Source: a virus (lineage: Duplodnaviria > Heunggongvirae > Uroviricota > Caudoviricetes). From it: DNA of 7,045 bases. The DNA is taken from IMG/VR virus record IMGVR_UViG_2547132277_000003; one strand, given 5' to 3'. How positions within the stretch are numbered: the stretch's first letter is position 1; every line of letters starts with the position of its first letter. The notes below the pieces were generated by a model that did no database searches, was not told where the DNA came from, and saw nothing but the letters and a program-made list of their open reading frames with translations. The position numbers and the translations under genes are program-made. Shown piece after piece: positions 1 through 7,045 of this stretch.

Positions 1-852
1 TTCCTGCGTGAAGCGCTGTTCCGGTGTCTGCCTGAACTGGCGAAGTTCTCGCCTGTCAGCAACGTCAGCCATCCACTGCTCCAGTAGCTGGTTAACATGG
101 GCGAAGCTGTCGAACCGGCGGTACCGGATGAAGAAGTTTTCCTTGAGGTATTTCACCATCCGTTCAACCTTACCTTTGGTTCTGGCCCTTCGTGGACGGC
201 AGGCCCGTGGCAGGAAGCCATAGTGATCGGCCAGCAGCAGGAACCCGGAGTTGAACACCACCTTCCCGTTGTTATTTTTCAGCACTGCGGCTTTCTGGTT
301 ATCGACCAGCACGGTTTTCACGCTACCGCCGAAGTAGCGAAAGGCGCGGACCAGTGACTCATAGGTATGTTCAGCATCCTGCTTTGGTGCCGCGAAGACA
401 TGGAAGCGACGTGAGAACCCCAGCGTATTAACCGCGAAGTTAACCCTGCATCGTTGCCCGGCAACCTCAGCCTCAACTTCTCCCCAGTCATGCTGTAGCT
501 GGTAACCGGGCTGAGTTTCGAAGCGAACCGTTTTCTTCGATGGCCGCATCTTACGTTTGGGCTGGATGTAGTAGCGCAACATGGAACGGCCACCGGTATA
601 ACCCATCGCTTTGATTTCCGCCAGGATGACCTCGCCGTTCCAGACGTTCTCAGCCAGACGCATATCTATATAGTCCATGAACGGCTTGAGTTTGGCCATT
701 TTGTGGCGTGTTTTTCTGGCCGGAGGTTCCGGGTATTTCAGGTACCGTCTGACGGTCCGTTCAGAGCAACCAACCTGAGTGGCAATATCAACAATATACG
801 CACCTTGCTGGCGCATTTGCTTTATCATGTAAAAATCCTCTCTGCTCAGCAT
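1..852 (-). CDS. istA: IS21-family transposase IstA, N-terminal ~284 aa (C-terminus beyond window)
   Basis: Manual minus-strand translation from ATG (complement of 850-852) gives MLSREDFYMIKQMRQQGAYIVDIATQVGCSERTVRRYLKY..., an N-terminal HTH. Further in are ...GYQLQHDWGEVEAEV... (first Asp of the DDE core) and ...RPRRARTKGKVERMVKYLKENFF..., all typical of IstA. The frame stays open to position 1 (last residues read ...VADRRELRQFRQTPEQRFTQE). It is absent from the ORF track only because no stop lies in the window. Confidence 0.85.
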   Translation of the reverse strand, partial: MLSREDFYMIKQMRQQGAYIVDIATQVGCSERTVRRYLKYPEPPARKTRHKMAKLKPFMDYIDMRLAENVWNGEVILAEIKAMGYTGGRSMLRYYIQPKRKMRPSKKTVRFETQPGYQLQHDWGEVEAEVAGQRCRVNFAVNTLGFSRRFHVFAAPKQDAEHTYESLVRAFRYFGGSVKTVLVDNQKAAVLKNNNGKVVFNSGFLLLADHYGFLPRACRPRRARTKGKVERMVKYLKENFFIRYRRFDSFAHVNQLLEQWMADVADRRELRQFRQTPEQRFTQE

Positions 853-953
853 GAGTGTTCCCTTTGTGGTGTAGGAACCTTAAGGAAACAACATGTTGGG
901 TGGAGCGGACAATCCAAATGGTGAATTACTGTCTTATATCATTGGCGCTGACA
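1..953 (-). mobile_element. IS21-family insertion sequence, left end plus 5' part of istA (partial; continues beyond window start)
   Basis: Contains the istA 5' region. On the minus strand a TG-initiated putative terminus TGTCAGCGCC (plus 944-953) lies 101 bp upstream of the istA start, and a related copy TGTCCGCTCC (plus 903-912) sits 41 bp inside it, matching the multiple-terminal-repeat layout of IS21-family ends. Boundary placement is inferred, not verified. Confidence 0.55.
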
Positions 954-1251: not shown

Positions 1252-1497
1252 ATGACTTTTGATGAAAAAGAACTTGATAATGCAATTAATAAAATCATCG
1301 TAACGTCGCTCTTTTCCTGTCTCAGCGACACTCAGCAGAAACAGTTCTACGAATCGGCTTTCAACATGATCGAGCGTTGTTGTTTCTGCGATGCCGACGA
1401 GTTACCTGAAAAAATCAGGAAACAGTTGGCTGATGCTCTTCGAGTGCGACTTTCTGACCAATTTTCTGAAATGTGCTCTCCGAATTTGGACAAATAG
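1252..1497 (+). CDS. hypothetical small protein (81 aa), AT-rich accessory-type gene
   Basis: ATG at 1252 preceded by AGGA (1241-1244) at 7 nt spacing. Codon usage is plausible and an AT-rich 8 bp hairpin (1507-1514 / 1525-1532) lies just after the TAG stop. No recognisable family. Its 3' end overlaps a convergent minus-strand ORF, so only one of the two may be real. Confidence 0.4.
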   Translation: MTFDEKELDNAINKIIVTSLFSCLSDTQQKQFYESAFNMIERCCFCDADELPEKIRKQLADALRVRLSDQFSEMCSPNLDK

Positions 1498-1690
1498 AAA
1501 AAGGCCATTTCCATTCAGGGTCTGATGGAAATACTTCAGCCTGTTCCAAAGCACGGCGTAAAGAGAACACAACTCCAGCCATAATCTGATGTTTCCCATT
1601 GGTCCAGCTATCGCCGCTCTGATCTACAGGGGCGGCTATGTCGTATGACCAAACGACTTCACAGTTATTGTTTAAAATCTGGACTTTCAT
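1415..1690 (-). CDS. hypothetical small protein (92 aa) in the PL-proximal position downstream of the repressor
   Basis: Start taken at the internal ATG (complement of 1688-1690) because it is preceded by GCAGGTG at 6 nt spacing; the ORF-track start at 1711 has no Shine-Dalgarno. It lies about 200 bp downstream (minus strand) of the OL-like operator pair. It is not Arg-rich, so not an obvious N-like antiterminator. It overlaps the 3' end of the plus-strand ORF 1252-1497 by 83 bp. Confidence 0.3.
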   Translation of the reverse strand: MKVQILNNNCEVVWSYDIAAPVDQSGDSWTNGKHQIMAGVVFSLRRALEQAEVFPSDPEWKWPFSICPNSESTFQKIGQKVALEEHQPTVS

Positions 1691-1897
1691 TTCATACACC
1701 TGCTTTAACATGAGTGCCTAGTGGCACAACATGACTCAACGAATCATCCTGGACTTCATATGCCCCAGGCGGCTACTTCGTGGGCGTCCTGCCTGTTCGT
1801 TTTTGACATTTACTGACTGCTTACGACACATGCACCGTGTTGCAACCAGATTTTGTTGTAATCCTGTAGTTGGTCTGGAACAAAAGATAAAATTAAA

Positions 1898-2778: not shown

Positions 2779-3039
2779 ATGCAATCACCATTACGAAATG
2801 TGCGTAAGGCGCATGGTTTCACTTTGCAGCATGTTGCTGCGGGTGTTCAAGTCAATCCAGCGACGTTGAGTCGTATTGAGAGGCTGGAGCAGATTCCATC
2901 TATCGAGCTTGCAGAACGTTTAGCCAATTTTTTTAAGGGTGAAGTCAGCGAAATGCAGATTCTTTATCCGGCACGTTTTCAATCTAGCCAAAACCAGAAT
3001 GGGTTTAAACCACAGGAACAGGAGGTGAACCGTGGGTAA
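2779..3039 (+). CDS. Cro-like HTH transcriptional regulator (XRE family)
   Basis: 86 aa, divergent from the repressor, strong SD GGAGGG 3 nt... upstream of the ATG at 2779 (2771-2776). HTH segment GFTLQHVAAGVQVNPATLSRIERLEQ. Its 3' end overlaps the next gene by 8 bp. Confidence 0.8.
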   Translation: MQSPLRNVRKAHGFTLQHVAAGVQVNPATLSRIERLEQIPSIELAERLANFFKGEVSEMQILYPARFQSSQNQNGFKPQEQEVNRG

Positions 3040-3583
3040 GCATCACTGGAAAGTAGAAAAACAGCCTGAGTGGTACGTGAAAGCTGTCAGAAAAACTATC
3101 GCAGCGTTGCCGGGGGGGTACGCTGAAGCTGCTGACTGGCTGGATGTAACAGAGAACGCATTATTTAACCGCCTTCGTGCCGATGGCGATCAGATTTTCC
3201 CGCTGGGATGGGCAATGATTTTGCAACGTGCTGGTGGAACTCACTTCATTGCTGACGCTGTGGCGCAGTCTGCAAATGGCGTCTTTGTGTCTCTTCCTGA
3301 TGTCGAGGATGTGGACAACGCCGATATCAACCAACGCCTGCTGGAGGTCATTGAACAGATCGGCAGTTATTCAAAACAGATTCGTTCAGCAATCGAAGAC
3401 GGTGTAGTGGAACCGCATGAGAAAACTGCAATTAACGACGAGCTATATCTCTCAATTTCGAAGCTGCAGGAGCATGCAGCACTGGTCTACAAAATCTTTT
3501 GCATTTCAGAAAGTAATGACGCCCGCGAGTGTGCAGCTCCGGGCGCCGTGGCGTGTCGTGACTGTGGAGAAACTAACGCATGA
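3032..3583 (+). CDS. phage CII-like regulatory protein (CP76-type, ~183 aa)
   Basis: GTG start at 3032 preceded by AGGAGGT (3019-3025). Position immediately after cro and its size fit the enterobacterial prophage CII-like (CP76) family. The family call is from memory of that family and is not verified; the C-terminus has a Cys cluster [13 protein letters not shown]. Confidence 0.65.
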
Positions 3584-3918
3584 ACAGTTTAACAACACAC
3601 TACCGTCGCTCGCAACTGATTGCGCTTCCTGTACCGGGTGGAAAAGCGAAGGTGGAGTATTGCTATGCAGTAAATGTACCAGGTGACAGGGAAATTGTAA
3701 CCCACAGCTTTGCAGAGTGGGCTGTGGGTGATTTCAACCGGCAGAAGGAGACAGTCCTTTGCGACAAGTTAACCGCTGGTTCAAAGATCACTACGGAGTG
3801 CCCGTCAGAGTCATTCGTTGGGAACCGGAAACACAACGGGTTATCTACCTCCGCGAAGGCTATGAGCATGAGTGCTTCAGTCCGCTCGAACAGTTTCGTC
3901 GTAAATTCAGGGAAATAG
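3580..3918 (+). CDS. hypothetical protein (112 aa); frame is uncertain in its 3' half
   Basis: ATG at 3580 overlaps the CII-like stop (ATGA) and has GGAG 9-10 nt upstream. The N-terminal ~57 codons look protein-like, but the 3' half ([48 protein letters not shown]) is Ser/Thr-rich and reads like an out-of-frame translation. Confidence 0.3.
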
Positions 3919-3938
3919 AGGTCGGTCATGAGCACTAA
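3759..3938 (+). CDS. hypothetical small protein (59 aa, TTG start), alternative frame to the 3' half of 3580-3918
   Basis: Manual translation in the third frame: (M)[58 protein letters not shown]. Balanced, aromatic- and charge-rich composition. A perfect SD AAGGAG (3745-3750) lies 8 nt before TTG at 3759. Missed by the ORF track, probably because of its short length. Confidence 0.35.
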
Positions 3939-4869
3939 ATTAACCGGCTATGTATGGGATGGTTGCGCAGCGTCAGGCATGAAATTATCCAGCGTGGCAA
4001 TTATGGCCCGCCTGGCTGATTTCAGTAATGACGAAGGTGTGTGCTGGCCATCAATTGAAACCATTGCCCGTCAGATTGGCGCGGGGATGAGTACCGTCAG
4101 AACGGCTATCGCACGGCTGGAAGCAGAAGGCTGGTTAACGCGTAAGGCGCGTCGCCAGGGTAACCGCAATGCGTCGAATGTTTATCAGCTTAACGTTGCG
4201 AAGCTTCAGGCAGCGGCATTTTCTCAACTGTCAGATTCTGACCCGTCAAAATCTGACGCATCAAAATCTGACCCGTCAAAATTTGATGCGTCGAAATCTG
4301 GCAAAAAAGCGGGTTTTCACCCGTCAGAATCTGGCGGGGATCCGTCAGTAAAATCAAAACATGATCCGTCAGATAAAAAAACTTCTCGTCCGGACGCTTC
4401 GCAACCGGACACGCAGACGGCTGAACAGGAGTTTTTAACTCGCCATCCTGATGCGGTTGTATTCAGCCCTAAAAAGCGCCAGTGGGGAACGCAGGATGAT
4501 TTGACCTGCGCACAGTGGCTCTGGAAAAAAATCATCGCCCTGTACGAGCAGGCCGCCGAATGTGACGGCGAGGTGGTTCGTCCCAAAGAACCGAACTGGA
4601 CAGCCTGGGCAAACGAAATTCGCCTGATGTGTGTGCAGGATGGTCGTACTCATAAACAAATCTGCGAGATGTACAGCCGCGTCAGTCGCGATCCGTTCTG
4701 GTGCCGTAACGTGCTCAGCCCGTCGAAGCTGCGGGAAAAATGGGATGAGCTTTCCCTGCGCTTATCGCCGTCCGTCAGCACGTACACCGAAAAACGCGAA
4801 GACCCGTACTTCAAAGCCAGTTACGACAACGTGGACTACAGCCAGATCCCGGCAGGATTCAGGGGGTGA
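3928..4869 (+). CDS. phage replication initiation protein, O-like (N-terminal winged-HTH domain, iteron-encoded linker, C-terminal domain)
   Basis: 313 aa, SD GAGGT (3918-3922) 5 nt before the ATG. N-terminus VWDGCAASGMKLSSVAIMARLADFSNDEGVCWPSIETIARQIGAGMSTVRTAIARLEAEGWL resembles the HTH of prophage replication initiators. The central low-complexity linker (SDSDPSKSDASKSDPSKFDASKS...) is encoded by tandem DNA repeats, as in lambda O where the origin lies inside the gene. Confidence 0.8.
   Translation: MSTKLTGYVWDGCAASGMKLSSVAIMARLADFSNDEGVCWPSIETIARQIGAGMSTVRTAIARLEAEGWLTRKARRQGNRNASNVYQLNVAKLQAAAFSQLSDSDPSKSDASKSDPSKFDASKSGKKAGFHPSESGGDPSVKSKHDPSDKKTSRPDASQPDTQTAEQEFLTRHPDAVVFSPKKRQWGTQDDLTCAQWLWKKIIALYEQAAECDGEVVRPKEPNWTAWANEIRLMCVQDGRTHKQICEMYSRVSRDPFWCRNVLSPSKLREKWDELSLRLSPSVSTYTEKREDPYFKASYDNVDYSQIPAGFRG
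4228..4380. repeat. iteron-like tandem repeats (putative phage replication origin) inside the O-like gene
   Basis: Five contiguous 15-bp units at 4228-4302 (cTGTCAGATTCTGAC, CCGTCAAAATCTGAC, GCATCAAAATCTGAC, CCGTCAAAATTTGAT, GCGTCGAAATCTGGC), then further CCGTCAG-initiated copies at 4321, 4342 and 4366. Each unit has internal dyad symmetry (GTCAGA / TCTGAC). A moderately A-rich stretch (4343-4381) follows. Confidence 0.6.
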
Positions 4870-4871
4870 GC

Positions 4872-5360
4872 ATGAGTCTTTTGAATGACGTTCAGAAATT
4901 CATTGAAGCCCATCCGGGCTGTACTTCCGGAGATATTGCGGATGCTTTTGCCGGTTACTCACGGCAGCGCGTTCTGCAGTCAGCAAGCAAGTTACGTCAG
5001 AGTGGGCGTGTGGCTCACCGTTGTGAAGGAGATACACGCAGACATTTCCCGCGCCTGACTGAGAGAGCGCAGGAACCGGAACCACAACCAGTTCGTGAAA
5101 CCAGACCTGTGCGCAATTTCTATGTCGGCACTAACGATCCCCGTGTGATTTTGTGCCTGACCCGCCAGGCGGAAGAACTGGAGTCCAGGGGCTTATACCG
5201 TCGTGCTGCAACCGTGTGGATGGCGGCATTCCGTGAAAGCCACTCCCAGCCAGAACGAAACAATTTTCTGACGCGTCGTGAGCGGTGCTTACGGAAAAGC
5301 AGCAAGCGCGCTGCATCGGGTGAAGAGTGGTATCTGTCAGGGAATTACGTGGGGGCTTAA
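4872..5360 (+). CDS. PerC-family (Pch-like) transcriptional regulator with an N-terminal winged-helix-like extension
   Basis: ATG at 4872 preceded by AGGGGG (4861-4866); an alternative GTG at 4866 overlaps the upstream stop. The C-terminal half contains ...AEELESRGLYRRAATVWMAAF...RRERCLRK..., matching the signature I associate with PerC/Pch activators. Family call is from memory and not verified. Confidence 0.55.
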   Translation: MSLLNDVQKFIEAHPGCTSGDIADAFAGYSRQRVLQSASKLRQSGRVAHRCEGDTRRHFPRLTERAQEPEPQPVRETRPVRNFYVGTNDPRVILCLTRQAEELESRGLYRRAATVWMAAFRESHSQPERNNFLTRRERCLRKSSKRAASGEEWYLSGNYVGA

Positions 5361-6013
5361 TGAGTAATAAATATTGCCAGGCGCTGGTGGAACTGCGGAA
5401 CAAACCAGCCCATGAACTGAAGGAAGTGGGCGATCAGTGGCGCACGCCGGACAACATTTTCTGGGGAATTAACACCCTGTTTGGCCCGTTTGTTCTGGAT
5501 CTGTTCACTGACGGTGATAACGCCAAATGTGCCGCGTATTACACGGCGGAAGACAACGCGCTGGCGCATGACTGGTCAGAACGTCTTGCGGAGCTTAAAG
5601 GTGCTGCCTTTGGTAATCCCCCATACAGCCGCGCCAGTCAGCATGAGGGGCAATACATCACCGGCATGCGTTACATCATGAAACATGCCAGTGCCATGCG
5701 TGATAAGGGCGGGCGCTATGTTTTCCTGATCAAAGCTGCCACCAGCGAAGTGTGGTGGCCGGAAGATGCAGATCATATTGCTTTTATTCGCGGGCGTATT
5801 GGTTTTGAACTGCCTGTCTGGTTTATCCCGAAAGACGAGAAGCAGGTACCGACAGGAGCTTTTTTCGCTGGTGCTATTGCTGTTTTTGACAAGACCTGGA
5901 AGGGACCGGCAATCAGCTACATCGGGCGCGATGAACTTGAGGCATGTGGTGAGGCGTTTCTGGCGCAGGTTCGCCAGCAGGCGGAAAAACTGGTCAGGGA
6001 GATGGCGGCATGA
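5360..6013 (+). CDS. phage-type DNA N6-adenine methyltransferase (Dam family), orphan with no adjacent restriction gene
   Basis: Catalytic motif IV AAFGNPPYSR is present, with upstream DQWRTPDNIF and VLDLFTDGDNAKCAAYYTAEDNAL typical of phage Dam-type enzymes. Start chosen at ATG 5360 (TAATG overlap with the upstream stop); an in-frame GTG at 5327 is an alternative. Confidence 0.85.
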   Translation: MSNKYCQALVELRNKPAHELKEVGDQWRTPDNIFWGINTLFGPFVLDLFTDGDNAKCAAYYTAEDNALAHDWSERLAELKGAAFGNPPYSRASQHEGQYITGMRYIMKHASAMRDKGGRYVFLIKAATSEVWWPEDADHIAFIRGRIGFELPVWFIPKDEKQVPTGAFFAGAIAVFDKTWKGPAISYIGRDELEACGEAFLAQVRQQAEKLVREMAA

Positions 6014-6336
6014 CGACGTTAACTCAATGCCAGCAGCAGGTGCTGGATATGCTGATTTCTTATCAGAAAGAACGTGGCTTCCCGCCAACCAATCAGGAGG
6101 TGGCAACCATGCTGGGATACCGTTCGGTGAATGCAGCGGTGGAGCATCTTCGCGCACTGGAGAAAAAAGGCGTCATCACGATAAAGCGTGGCGTGGCCCG
6201 GGGGATAACGCTTCATACCGCGGTGAAGGACGACGACAGCGAGGCGGTCGGGATTATCCGCGCACTGCTTGCCGGTGAGGAAAACGCAAGGCTGCGTGCA
6301 ACCCACTGGTTACATGAGAGGGACCTGAAAGTATGA
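6010..6336 (+). CDS. LexA-like DNA-binding-domain-only protein (winged HTH, no S24 peptidase domain)
   Basis: 108 aa. LTQCQQQVLDMLISYQKERGFPPTNQEVATMLGYRSVNAAVEHLRALEKKGVITIKRGVARGITL parallels the LexA N-terminal domain (LTARQQEVFDLI...[36 protein letters not shown]...) but the protein ends about 35 residues later with no Ser/Lys dyad. ATGA overlap with the Dam stop. Confidence 0.75.
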   Translation: MTTLTQCQQQVLDMLISYQKERGFPPTNQEVATMLGYRSVNAAVEHLRALEKKGVITIKRGVARGITLHTAVKDDDSEAVGIIRALLAGEENARLRATHWLHERDLKV

Positions 6337-6614
6337 AGCTGATCCTGCCTTTTCCGCCCAGCGTGAACACGTACTGGCGACACCCCAACAAAGGGGCGTT
6401 TGCTGGTAAGAGCCTGATAAGCGCGGCGGGGCGAAAATTCCAGAGCGCGGCGTGCGCAGCAATAGTTGAGCAGTTACGTCGTCTGCCGAAACCAACGTCG
6501 GCACCTGCTTCAGTGGAGATCGTGTTGTTTCCTCCGGATAGACGGGATGGAAAACCGCCGCCATCGCCTGAACTGGGAAATGAGCCGGGACAGGTGTTTG
6601 CGGCTTGGCAGTAA
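6333..6614 (+). pseudogene. rusA: RusA-family Holliday-junction resolvase, C-terminally disrupted (catalytic Asp region missing)
   Basis: N-terminus MKLILPFPPSVNTYWRHPNKG matches the RusA signature (E. coli RusA LPWPPSNNRYYRHNRG). Similarity continues through ...VEIVLFPPDRR, but the expected RRDLDN...K...D catalytic segment is replaced by DGKPPPSPELGNEPGQVFAAWQ-stop. No alternative frame in 6538-6660 restores it. ATGA overlap with the upstream gene. Confidence 0.55.
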
Positions 6615-6650
6615 CCGGCTCATTTAAACCGTCTGGTCTGTTTCCTCCGG
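6526..6650. repeat. 12-bp exact direct repeat TGTTTCCTCCGG (6526-6537 and 6639-6650) flanking ~101 bp at the rusA breakpoint
   Basis: Seen directly in the sequence. The first copy lies within rusA codons just before homology is lost; the second lies 44 bp upstream of the right-hand transposase start. Confidence 0.6.
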
Positions 6651-6693
6651 CTCTACAAAAATAATGTCCATCATTTTTAATGGACACTATCGT

Positions 6694-7045
6694 ATGAAAC
6701 ACCGGACCTGGATCACTGAAGCTTTACGTCTTCACTTTGAAGAACATTTACCCCGGGTTGTGGCCGGGCGTCGCCTGGGTGTACCAAAATCAACAGTTTG
6801 TAGTATGTTCGTGCGCTTTCGGAGAGCTGGCCTTTCGTGGCCTTTGCCCGCAGGCATGTCGGAGCAGGAACTTGATGCCTGCCTTTACGGACAATTTTCC
6901 ACGATACCAGTCGTACGTCCTGAAAGCACCGTTATATCCGAAGCCCCCGTGGTAAAAAAACGTCCCCGGCGGCCCAACTTCCCTTATGAGTTTAAAATCG
7001 CCTTAGTGGAGCAGTCACTGCAGCCCGGAGCCTGTGTGGCGCAGA
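6694..7045 (+). CDS. IS transposase, N-terminal part with two HTH regions (family uncertain, IS3-family OrfA-like; partial, runs off window end)
   Basis: Manual translation from ATG 6694: MKHRTWITEALRLHFEEHLPRVVAGRRLGVPKSTVCSMFVRFRRAGLSWPLPAGMSEQELDACLYGQFSTIPVVRPESTVISEAPVVKKRPRRPNFPYEFKIALVEQSLQPGACVAQ..., no stop before the window end. The second HTH resembles IS2-type OrfA ([25 protein letters not shown]). It differs from the left-hand IstA, so the two flanking elements are different. Confidence 0.6.
   Translation, partial: MKHRTWITEALRLHFEEHLPRVVAGRRLGVPKSTVCSMFVRFRRAGLSWPLPAGMSEQELDACLYGQFSTIPVVRPESTVISEAPVVKKRPRRPNFPYEFKIALVEQSLQPGACVAQ

Follow-up and report, generated by a model that had tools for sequence, protein, structure and literature searches.

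The gene at 4872–5360 on the plus strand of the window, the stretch of 7,045 bp analyzed here, is yfdN. Both this identity and the membership of its product in the PerC family are near certain. The best explanation of yfdN is that it is a conserved delayed-early gene of lambdoid prophages of the SfV/ST64B/mEp460 type. In the predicted structure YfdN was shown to comprise a winged helix, a flexible linker, a basic PerC/ANR-type three-helix domain and a conserved tail.

The ORF list and the sequence showed an intact ORF of 162 amino acids, running from ATG at 4872 to TAA at 5358–5360 on the plus strand. A Shine-Dalgarno-like AGGGGG is located at 4861–4866 (plus strand), 5 nt 5' of this ATG, and the TGA of the upstream replication gene (4867–4869) sits between the two (junction sequence GATTCAGGGGGTGAGCATGAG). 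GTG at 4866 is an alternative start which gives a product of 164 amino acids and is the start chosen by PGAP. Because of the spacing of AGGGGG, and because distant yfdN homologues start with MSL or MSI, ATG 4872 is the likelier start and was preferred over GTG 4866. The assignment of the coding sequence to yfdN was made from its identity to annotated yfdN. At the DNA level it is 100% identical to the PGAP-annotated yfdN of NZ_CP024232, to ETEC O6:H16 strain 2014EL-1346-6 and to many other genomes. PGAP labels the identical gene yfdN, “PerC family transcriptional regulator.”

The protein is identical to K-12 YfdN (b2357, CPS-53/KpLE1 prophage) at 161 of 164 positions (98%). The K-12 protein is still an “uncharacterised protein” in RefSeq. 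A yfdN match was found in 2,673 of 5,426 complete E. coli genomes, which is about half. Phage copies are 94–99% identical in SfV (orf40), SfII, SfIV, mEp460 and Stx2c/Stx2a phages, and 68.5% identical in Salmonella phage ST64B. Homologues are also present in Salmonella, Citrobacter, and Hafnia. K-12 YfdN and the phage orthologues (SfV orf40, ST64B, SfII, mEp460) represent the same gene with no substantive differences. The K-12 gene is flanked by the replication gene remnant yfdO upstream and the methyltransferase remnant yfdM downstream, matching the neighbors in the window. The copy in the window differs in its surroundings: the remnant that holds it is flanked by IS elements, has decayed in another way and belongs to an ETEC background. 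With a name and an annotation already in place, yfdN is no discovery: annotation pipelines label it as PerC family and the EHEC literature names it as the K-12 PerC homologue.

No test of YfdN function was found in the literature searched, which contained incidental mentions only. Uhlich et al. referred to yfdN as the PerC homologue of K-12 and, as a precaution, used a ler-lacZ reporter strain from which it had been deleted (PMC5931665). Over-expression of yfdN altered glycogen accumulation in a screen of the ASKA over-expression library. A list of CFT073 genes that nitric oxide changed 12.6-fold included yfdN along with other prophage genes. An interactome cluster predicted for “negative regulation of transcription” also contains YfdN, and prophage co-regulation accounts for another incidental mention.

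YfdN matched Pfam PF06069 (PerC) at 36.6 bits (E 5.5e-9) over amino acids 98–149, above the gathering cut-off of 22.6. It also matched PHROG 1324, “transcriptional activator,” over its full length (E 2.8e-78). The PerC core motif, LE-x-[KR]-G-L-[YW]-RRAA-x-x-W followed by RR-x-x-C, is present as LESRGLYRRAATVW at amino acids 103–116 and RRERC at 135–139, the latter within RRERCLRK at 135–142. In the form A-E-x-L-E-x-[KR]-G-L-[YW]-R-R-A-A-x-x-W ... R-R-x-x-C this core is common to YfdN, PerC of the EPEC pEAF plasmid and PchA/B/C of EHEC prophages. All of these proteins share the three-helix core and are carried on mobile elements. The YfdN core also aligned with Sakai PchD and PchE and with a Pch-like ORF. 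The PF06069 match is limited to model positions 5–56 of 90, which is the three-helix core, and does not cover the whole model. Positions 57–90, the C-terminal extension found in PerC and Pch, are absent from YfdN. The canonical Pch-like ORF in comparison covered model positions 1–82 at 133.8 bits. This ORF came from a plasmid match (H79) that was considered as the pEAF PerC and ruled out, being a Pch-like gene beside phage lysis genes; it was used solely as a reference for the canonical PerC model. It lies downstream of a lysis gene (Rz1), whereas yfdN is located in the replication module. PerC and Pch are single-domain proteins, and the group 1 pch genes are 315 bp long. YfdN, at 162 amino acids, exceeds the small single-domain size of about 90–130 amino acids and has in addition an N-terminal winged helix, a linker and a conserved tail of its own.

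The structure of YfdN was predicted using AlphaFold2 with 18 homologues as input and had a mean pLDDT of 77.8. The N-terminal domain (4872–5057, plus strand; amino acids 1–62) has predicted helices at 3–13, 19–25, and 31–44 and wing strands at 47–52 and 55–60. These have pLDDT values of 85–92 and follow the H1-H2-H3-strand-strand order of a winged helix. Sequence matches to winged helix-turn-helix families were weak (phrog_1687 MarR, E 6.6e-5; BilQ, E 0.0035), and Penicillinase_R, MarR_2, and HTH_24 matched the N-domain of a few homologues. The predicted recognition helix and wing are basic, with K40, R42, and R46 invariant in close homologues. A Pro/Glu-rich linker follows (5058–5135, plus strand; amino acids 63–88). 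It is of low confidence, with amino acids 63–83 below a pLDDT of 50 and predicted to be disordered; it is gapped and variable in alignments and its length differs among homologues. The PerC/ANR-type domain (5136–5318, plus strand; amino acids 89–149) carries both motifs and is formed by helices at 90–105, 109–122, and 126–148 with pLDDT values of about 88–95. Both motifs fall in a helical hairpin whose helices were modeled at a pLDDT above 90. Both folded domains are basic, with pI values of 9.8 for the N-domain and 11.1 for the C-domain. The C-terminal tail, GEEWYLSGNYVGA (5319–5357, plus strand; amino acids 150–162), is of low pLDDT and holds the motif W-x-L-[AS]-G-x-[YF]-x-G.

No solved relative was found by phmmer against PDB sequences, even at E 10, and a BFVD fold search gave nothing at E ≤ 0.001, although small ANR-like proteins of phages superposed on the C-domain with weak E-values. 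At the level of fold YfdN resembles the HTH plus TPR regulators (PlcR, Rap, and other RRNPP proteins). The resemblance does not extend to sequence and no signaling-peptide gene was present. With about 1.5 repeats YfdN has too few to form a peptide-binding groove as RRNPP proteins do.

These results uphold most of the first-pass annotation, which had described a PerC/Pch-like regulator with its C-terminal half fused to a winged-helix-like N-terminal domain of about 60 residues. The ORF lies at 4872–5360 with both of the quoted motifs. The suggested profile search against the PerC family gave a significant match, well beyond chance, and at 36.6 bits against a cut-off of 22.6 the family call holds. 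The predicted winged helix at amino acids 1–62 ahead of the PerC domain agrees with the proposed fusion.

The architecture of YfdN defines a two-domain subfamily. When 1.84 billion representatives were searched exhaustively with HMMER, 99 matches were obtained. About 30 of these were full-length two-domain proteins with 23–48% identity to YfdN, and PF06069 was matched by 30 of 30 distant two-domain homologues. L103, R111, A112, A113, R136, and C139 are invariant or nearly so across the approximately 30 homologues. G157 and G161 of the tail are nearly invariant among 30 sequences at 23–48% identity, and the tail motif is conserved within the subfamily. The motif was absent from the PchD, PchE and Pch-like sequences compared, and the tail could not be aligned with Pch C-termini. 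Sakai PchD (89 amino acids), PchE (90 amino acids) and the canonical Pch-like protein have only the three-helix core in common with YfdN; they carry a different C-terminal extension and no winged helix. The experimentally tested PerC-family proteins that were checked (PchD, PchE, and the products of the 315 bp group 1 pch genes) are too short for the architecture of YfdN, which combines a winged helix, a PerC/ANR core and a conserved tail. Results obtained with PerC, Pch, and ANR proteins are therefore not simply transferable to YfdN.

Profile matches and the PGAP-annotated neighbors place yfdN in the early region of a prophage, as had been proposed from the sequence. A CI-type repressor gene (HTH plus S24 peptidase; Pfam Peptidase_S24 and HTH_3) is encoded on the minus strand at 1989–2681. 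On the plus strand a cro-like gene (2779–3039; Pfam HTH_3) and the cII-like ymfL (3032–3583; Pfam Phage_CP76), both named by PGAP, form the head of the rightward early operon. A DUF4222 gene is located at 3759–3938. The replication initiator gene (3928–4869, plus strand; HTH_36; PHROG 391, “replication initiation O-like”) has a stop codon adjoining the yfdN start. Downstream of yfdN on the plus strand is a phage N6-adenine DNA methyltransferase gene, dam (5360–6013; Pfam Dam 156 bits, TIGR01712 256 bits, PADLOC MTase_II). It is followed by a gene for a protein of 108 amino acids consisting only of a LexA DNA-binding domain (6010–6336, plus strand; Pfam LexA_DNA_bind 69 bits) and by a 5' remnant of rusA (6333–6545, plus strand). 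The rusA remnant had a weak RusA match and is classed as a pseudogene by PGAP; in NZ_CP024232 it is followed by an IS66-family insertion with tnpA starting at about 6664. The junctions are TAATG for yfdN/dam and ATGA for both dam/lexA-like and lexA-like/rusA. No promoter-like site was found on the plus strand from cro to rusA, and the only terminator-like structure there was a weak stem-loop inside cro. Given the tight junctions and the lack of an internal promoter-like site, the replication initiator, yfdN, dam, lexA-like and rusA genes are probably in a single early rightward operon. By analogy with lambdoid organization, we infer that this operon is silent while the CI-type repressor is intact. 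No non-coding RNA was predicted in the window by Rfam at gathering thresholds. YfdN was also considered as a component of anti-phage defense. This was ruled out as YfdN had no PADLOC match and the methyltransferase alone matched MTase models.

A mechanism for YfdN can be proposed by borrowing from work on its relatives. PerC and PchA-C activate LEE1/ler. Activation by Pch depends entirely on silencing by H-NS/StpA/Hha/YdgT, and Pch lowers the occupancy of LEE1 by H-NS (PMC4764244). Fukui et al. did not co-precipitate H-NS with PchA (PMC4764244), and for this reason the action of Pch itself is only partly defined. For ANR proteins the mode of action is binding to AraC-family activators and H-NS. 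The composite reading reached here is that yfdN encodes a delayed-early prophage regulator which joins DNA binding by the winged helix to a PerC/ANR-type action on silencing or activator complexes. The chances for and against this reading appear about equal, and its mechanistic part is far less certain than the identity and family of the gene. Transcription of yfdN would come from the early rightward promoter and only after inactivation of the repressor, for example in the SOS response. The winged helix would bind DNA. The PerC/ANR module, a helical hairpin of a protein-interaction type, would loosen silencing of the H-NS/StpA/Hha type or bind a transcription activator. This step is proposed because Pch and ANR proteins are reported to work in this way, and the anti-H-NS action in particular is taken from the Pch work (PMC4764244). 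During lytic development phage DNA, and host DNA as a side effect, would then be transcribed differently. Several results count against the composite reading. The PF06069 match is confined to the three-helix core, the ANR score of YfdN is under the curated cut-off, a single promoter can respond in opposite ways to different PerC-family members, and the constant methyltransferase neighborhood could indicate a role other than in transcription.

The same C-terminal domain could instead act as an ANR-type anti-activator. The three-helix domain would then inactivate an activator of the AraC/XylS family (in ETEC, for example, Rns/CfaD) or H-NS by protein contact, with repression as the net effect. 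YfdN resembles the ANR family (Aar, Rnr, Cnr; NF033650) in its three-helix signature and type of fold. The NCBIfam model NF033650 (ANR_neg_reg) gave 23.9 bits with full-length YfdN and 24.9 bits with the C-domain, below the cut-off of 32. Among its relatives 32 of 45 matched the model at E ≤ 0.01 (best 6.3e-12), so that a match which is below threshold for YfdN is nonetheless consistent within the family. The published ANR signature is A..E..A..W..A..W..R..C on three helices (A10, E14, A22, W26, A29, W43, R47, and C51; PMC4983702). When mapped by eye onto YfdN, A100, E104, A112, W116, A119, R135, and C139 fitted the spacing of this signature, whose residues are conserved, and the second aromatic, F132, was one residue off register. 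The C-domain has a TPR-like fold of a protein-interaction type. A 60 amino acid ANR protein of an Aeromonas phage superposed on it at 0.6 Å over 56 columns, at a weak Foldseek E of 0.068. From the model matches, the signature mapping and the superposition, PerC and ANR look like one superfamily. The overlap is not new, as it was noticed earlier for a PerC-family protein borne on a phage-inducible chromosomal island (PICI) (PMC11773190). That protein, EcCIMP1_025, represses LEE1, and its authors suspected an ANR-like action (PMC11773190). Set against this, the ANR score of YfdN remains at 24 bits where 32 are required. ANR proteins are single-domain proteins of 4–9.5 kDa which accompany AraC-family regulators, whereas YfdN is larger, has a winged helix and is without an adjacent AraC partner. 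No AraC-family gene was found in the window, in the 12.5 kb ETEC locus or in related loci. Most yfdN hosts, K-12 for example, are without a virulence AraC regulon. Anti-activation of the ANR type is therefore held to be unlikely.

The state of the prophage raises a different question, which concerns the locus. The whole 7,045 bp window is 100% identical to two ETEC-type chromosomes, and in 14 others the match begins at position 953, thereby excluding the left-hand IS. What is left of the prophage has an IS21-family element at 1–952, a rusA gene cut after about 6545 by an IS66-family element, and no late genes. As the window holds a remnant, yfdN may rarely or never be expressed there. It could be a silent passenger, carried in a decaying prophage and serving no present function for the host. 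This is favored by the truncation at both ends, by the missing late genes and by the intact repressor gene, owing to which the operon should be off. On the other hand the ORF is uninterrupted, many ETEC genomes carry it in identical form, and the block from cI to lexA-like is undamaged. In K-12 the prophage has decayed even further, yet it retains the 98% identical copy. Induction of yfdN through cleavage of the S24 repressor in the SOS response could still occur, and the nitric oxide list of CFT073 includes the gene. A silent passenger is accordingly judged improbable. As this concerns the locus and not the mechanism, it is compatible with the other readings, and the probabilities given to them need not sum to one.

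The gene order around yfdN recurs in homologues at 25–42% identity. In six loci (L003, L005, L007/L008, L010, L016, and L017) the gene upstream is a replication gene of the Phg_2220_C/HTH_36 type, and in L004 it is lambda P. The downstream gene is a methyltransferase from one of four unrelated families: Dam (PF05869) in the window, L005, L006, and L010, MT-A70 in L003 and L017, D12 in L016, and a C5-methylase/PAPS-reductase fusion in L004. In the lambdoid contexts examined the methyltransferase is always immediately downstream, and LexA_DNA_bind and RusA genes come next wherever the contig reaches. Two exceptions have no methyltransferase: L009, a PICI-like island that encodes an integrase and AlpA, and L015, where the gene follows recT. 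YfdN was also considered as a substitute for a helicase loader, the slot of lambda P. This role was rejected because a 42% identical homologue directly follows a lambda-P-family gene.

The neighborhood could mean that YfdN is an accessory of the replication/DNA-modification module, for example a controller or targeting partner of the downstream orphan methyltransferase. A replication gene, either the Phg_2220_C/HTH_36 initiator or lambda P, is upstream wherever visible in lambdoid-type contexts, and the methyltransferase downstream usually has overlapping codons and is drawn from four unrelated families. A conserved order in a mosaic nin-type region of lambdoid phages need not imply functional coupling, however, and the two-domain gene also occurs without a methyltransferase. 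Its co-occurrence with lambda P argues against replacement of the helicase loader. The N-domain was considered as a duplicate of the winged helix of the replication protein and showed no similarity to it by BLASTP. No methyltransferase partner with the fold of YfdN is known. An accessory role of this kind is thus rather unlikely. A broader form of the proposal would make the winged-helix-PerC/ANR proteins a distinct subfamily that acts with a phage orphan methyltransferase and not as a PerC-like virulence activator. Such proteins might set the timing or the target of methylation while phage DNA replicates, or might link anti-silencing to the methylation state. This too was given a low probability. 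The fixed slot between a replication gene and an interchangeable DNA methyltransferase is nonetheless a testable clue to a role in lytic development.

The first-pass annotation had gone further and suggested that YfdN could act on host virulence loci such as the LEE and so link prophage state to host gene expression. The distribution of the gene does not support this. The LEE (escN-escV) was found in 697 of the 5,426 complete E. coli genomes compared to 2,673 for yfdN, so at least 1,976 carriers (74%) have no LEE. K-12 carries yfdN without the LEE. The window matches ETEC O6:H16 chromosomes, and the ETEC pathotype is generally regarded as LEE-negative. As most carriers have no LEE and homologues occur in Salmonella, Citrobacter, and Hafnia, a LEE-specific role is not the conserved function, and YfdN is not a LEE-specific activator.

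Membership of the PerC family is no predictor of LEE activation either, as the effect of characterized members on LEE1 may be activation, none or repression. Activation of ler was four-fold or more with PchA-C and below two-fold with PchE, and PchD gave none; PchE also represses csgD and curli. PchD, PchE and the PICI-borne proteins (EcCIEDL933, EcCICFT073, and EcCIMP1_025) are divergent PerC-family proteins from prophage-like elements which have the same core motif as YfdN. They are functionally heterogeneous, having little or no effect on ler, repressing curli and adhesion, or repressing LEE1. Their genomic contexts are unlike that of yfdN. One two-domain homologue, P0186, likewise comes from a PICI-like island, where an integrase and AlpA are encoded. 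As an activator of the PerC and PchA-C kind, the prophage-borne YfdN would switch on LEE1/ler or some other virulence locus of the host and so tie virulence to the state of the prophage. This is suggested by the shared core motif and Pfam family and by the activation of ler by PerC and PchA-C. Uhlich et al. took cross-talk to be plausible and on that account removed yfdN from their ler-lacZ reporter strain (PMC5931665). Such an activator is very unlikely given the carriers and homologues outside LEE-positive strains, the little or no ler effect of PchD and PchE with the same core, the neutral or repressive PICI-borne proteins (PMC11773190), and the lack in YfdN of PerC model positions 57–90 together with its extra domains. 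Of the earlier interpretation, the family, the two domains and the early-region location stand and the link to a virulence locus does not.

The finding itself adds little to what is annotated. The gene is nevertheless common, carried by roughly half of the complete E. coli genomes and by phages including SfV, ST64B, and Stx2c phages. If the composite reading is true, with YfdN tethered to DNA, relieving silencing and induced along with the SOS response, it would give cryptic prophages a widespread means of perturbing host transcription.

The window carries a prophage remnant whose left end is filled by an IS21-family element (ISEc62 istA, positions 1-952, minus strand); this insertion is missing from 14 genomes that are otherwise identical to the window. 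At the other end (6545-7045) rusA is cut off by an IS66-family element. In the enterotoxigenic E. coli O6:H16 chromosome NZ_CP024232 a truncated integrase gene and an AVAST Avs2 defence gene are located just past the IS66 element.

Two ORFs overlap on opposite strands at 1252-1497 (plus strand, 81 aa) and 1415-1711 (minus strand, 98 aa). PGAP annotated only the minus-strand ORF of this pair, as a hypothetical protein, and no family was found for either among Pfam, PHROG (as tested) or PADLOC. Repeated TTGCG(C/T)...-type sequences, including TTGCGTGATAAGCAA, TTGCGCAAAATAATTGCGTG and ACGCGCAATA, were present in the cI-cro intergenic region at 2700-2770. From their sequence these look like operator sites. 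No promoter was called at 2700-2770 by a simple sigma-70 scan. A second pair of overlapping ORFs, both on the plus strand in different frames, has family support for each member. The ORF at 3580-3918 (112 aa) had a full-length match to phrog_1170 (E 6e-70) and a match to phrog_20047 limited to its first 63 aa. The ORF at 3759-3938 (59 aa) has a TTG start, was called by PGAP and matched Pfam DUF4222 (67 bits). This arrangement may mean that an ORF family has been mis-called, that the two genuinely overlap, or that a frameshift site lies here.

PGAP places the start of yfdN at GTG 4866, giving the N-terminus MSMSLL... The ATG at 4872 is favoured as the probable start, both by its distance from the Shine-Dalgarno sequence and by the fact that distant homologues begin with MSL... 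In rare database proteins the YfdN sequence is joined to Dam, the HTH_36 replication protein or RusA (P0019/P0020, P0023/P0024, P0036/P0038/P0045). These fusions are mostly single-member, with eight members in one cluster, and look like deletion or frameshift products of decaying prophages and not real architectures.

A DNA methyltransferase gene lies directly 3' of the winged-helix-PerC gene in the window (5360-6013) and in the homologue loci L003, L004 (1003-3357), L005, L006, L010, L016 and L017. The enzymes in this slot belong to four unrelated families, namely Dam (PF05869), MT-A70, D12 and a C5-methylase/PAPS-reductase fusion of 785 aa. Codons usually overlap at the junction. The link may be either functional or positional alone. 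Directly 3' of the methyltransferase, at 6010-6336 (plus strand), is a gene for a 108 aa protein that has a LexA DNA-binding domain (69 bits) and nothing more, the S24 peptidase domain being absent. This gene keeps its place directly 3' of the methyltransferase in related lambdoid loci where these extend far enough, and its product might occupy SOS boxes in competition with LexA.

In E. coli Sakai pchE (90 aa) is located in Sp7, where it follows genes for primase and SSB in an arrangement resembling that of a PICI. In the Sakai region 1436000-1441000, pchD (89 aa) is directly preceded by ibrA, which is PAPS-reductase-like, and ybdM. Fused PAPS-reductase domains are also carried by methyltransferases adjoining YfdN-type genes (phrog_33262, L004, phage cdtI). 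These arrangements hint that PerC-family genes are recurrently associated with DNA-modification genes.
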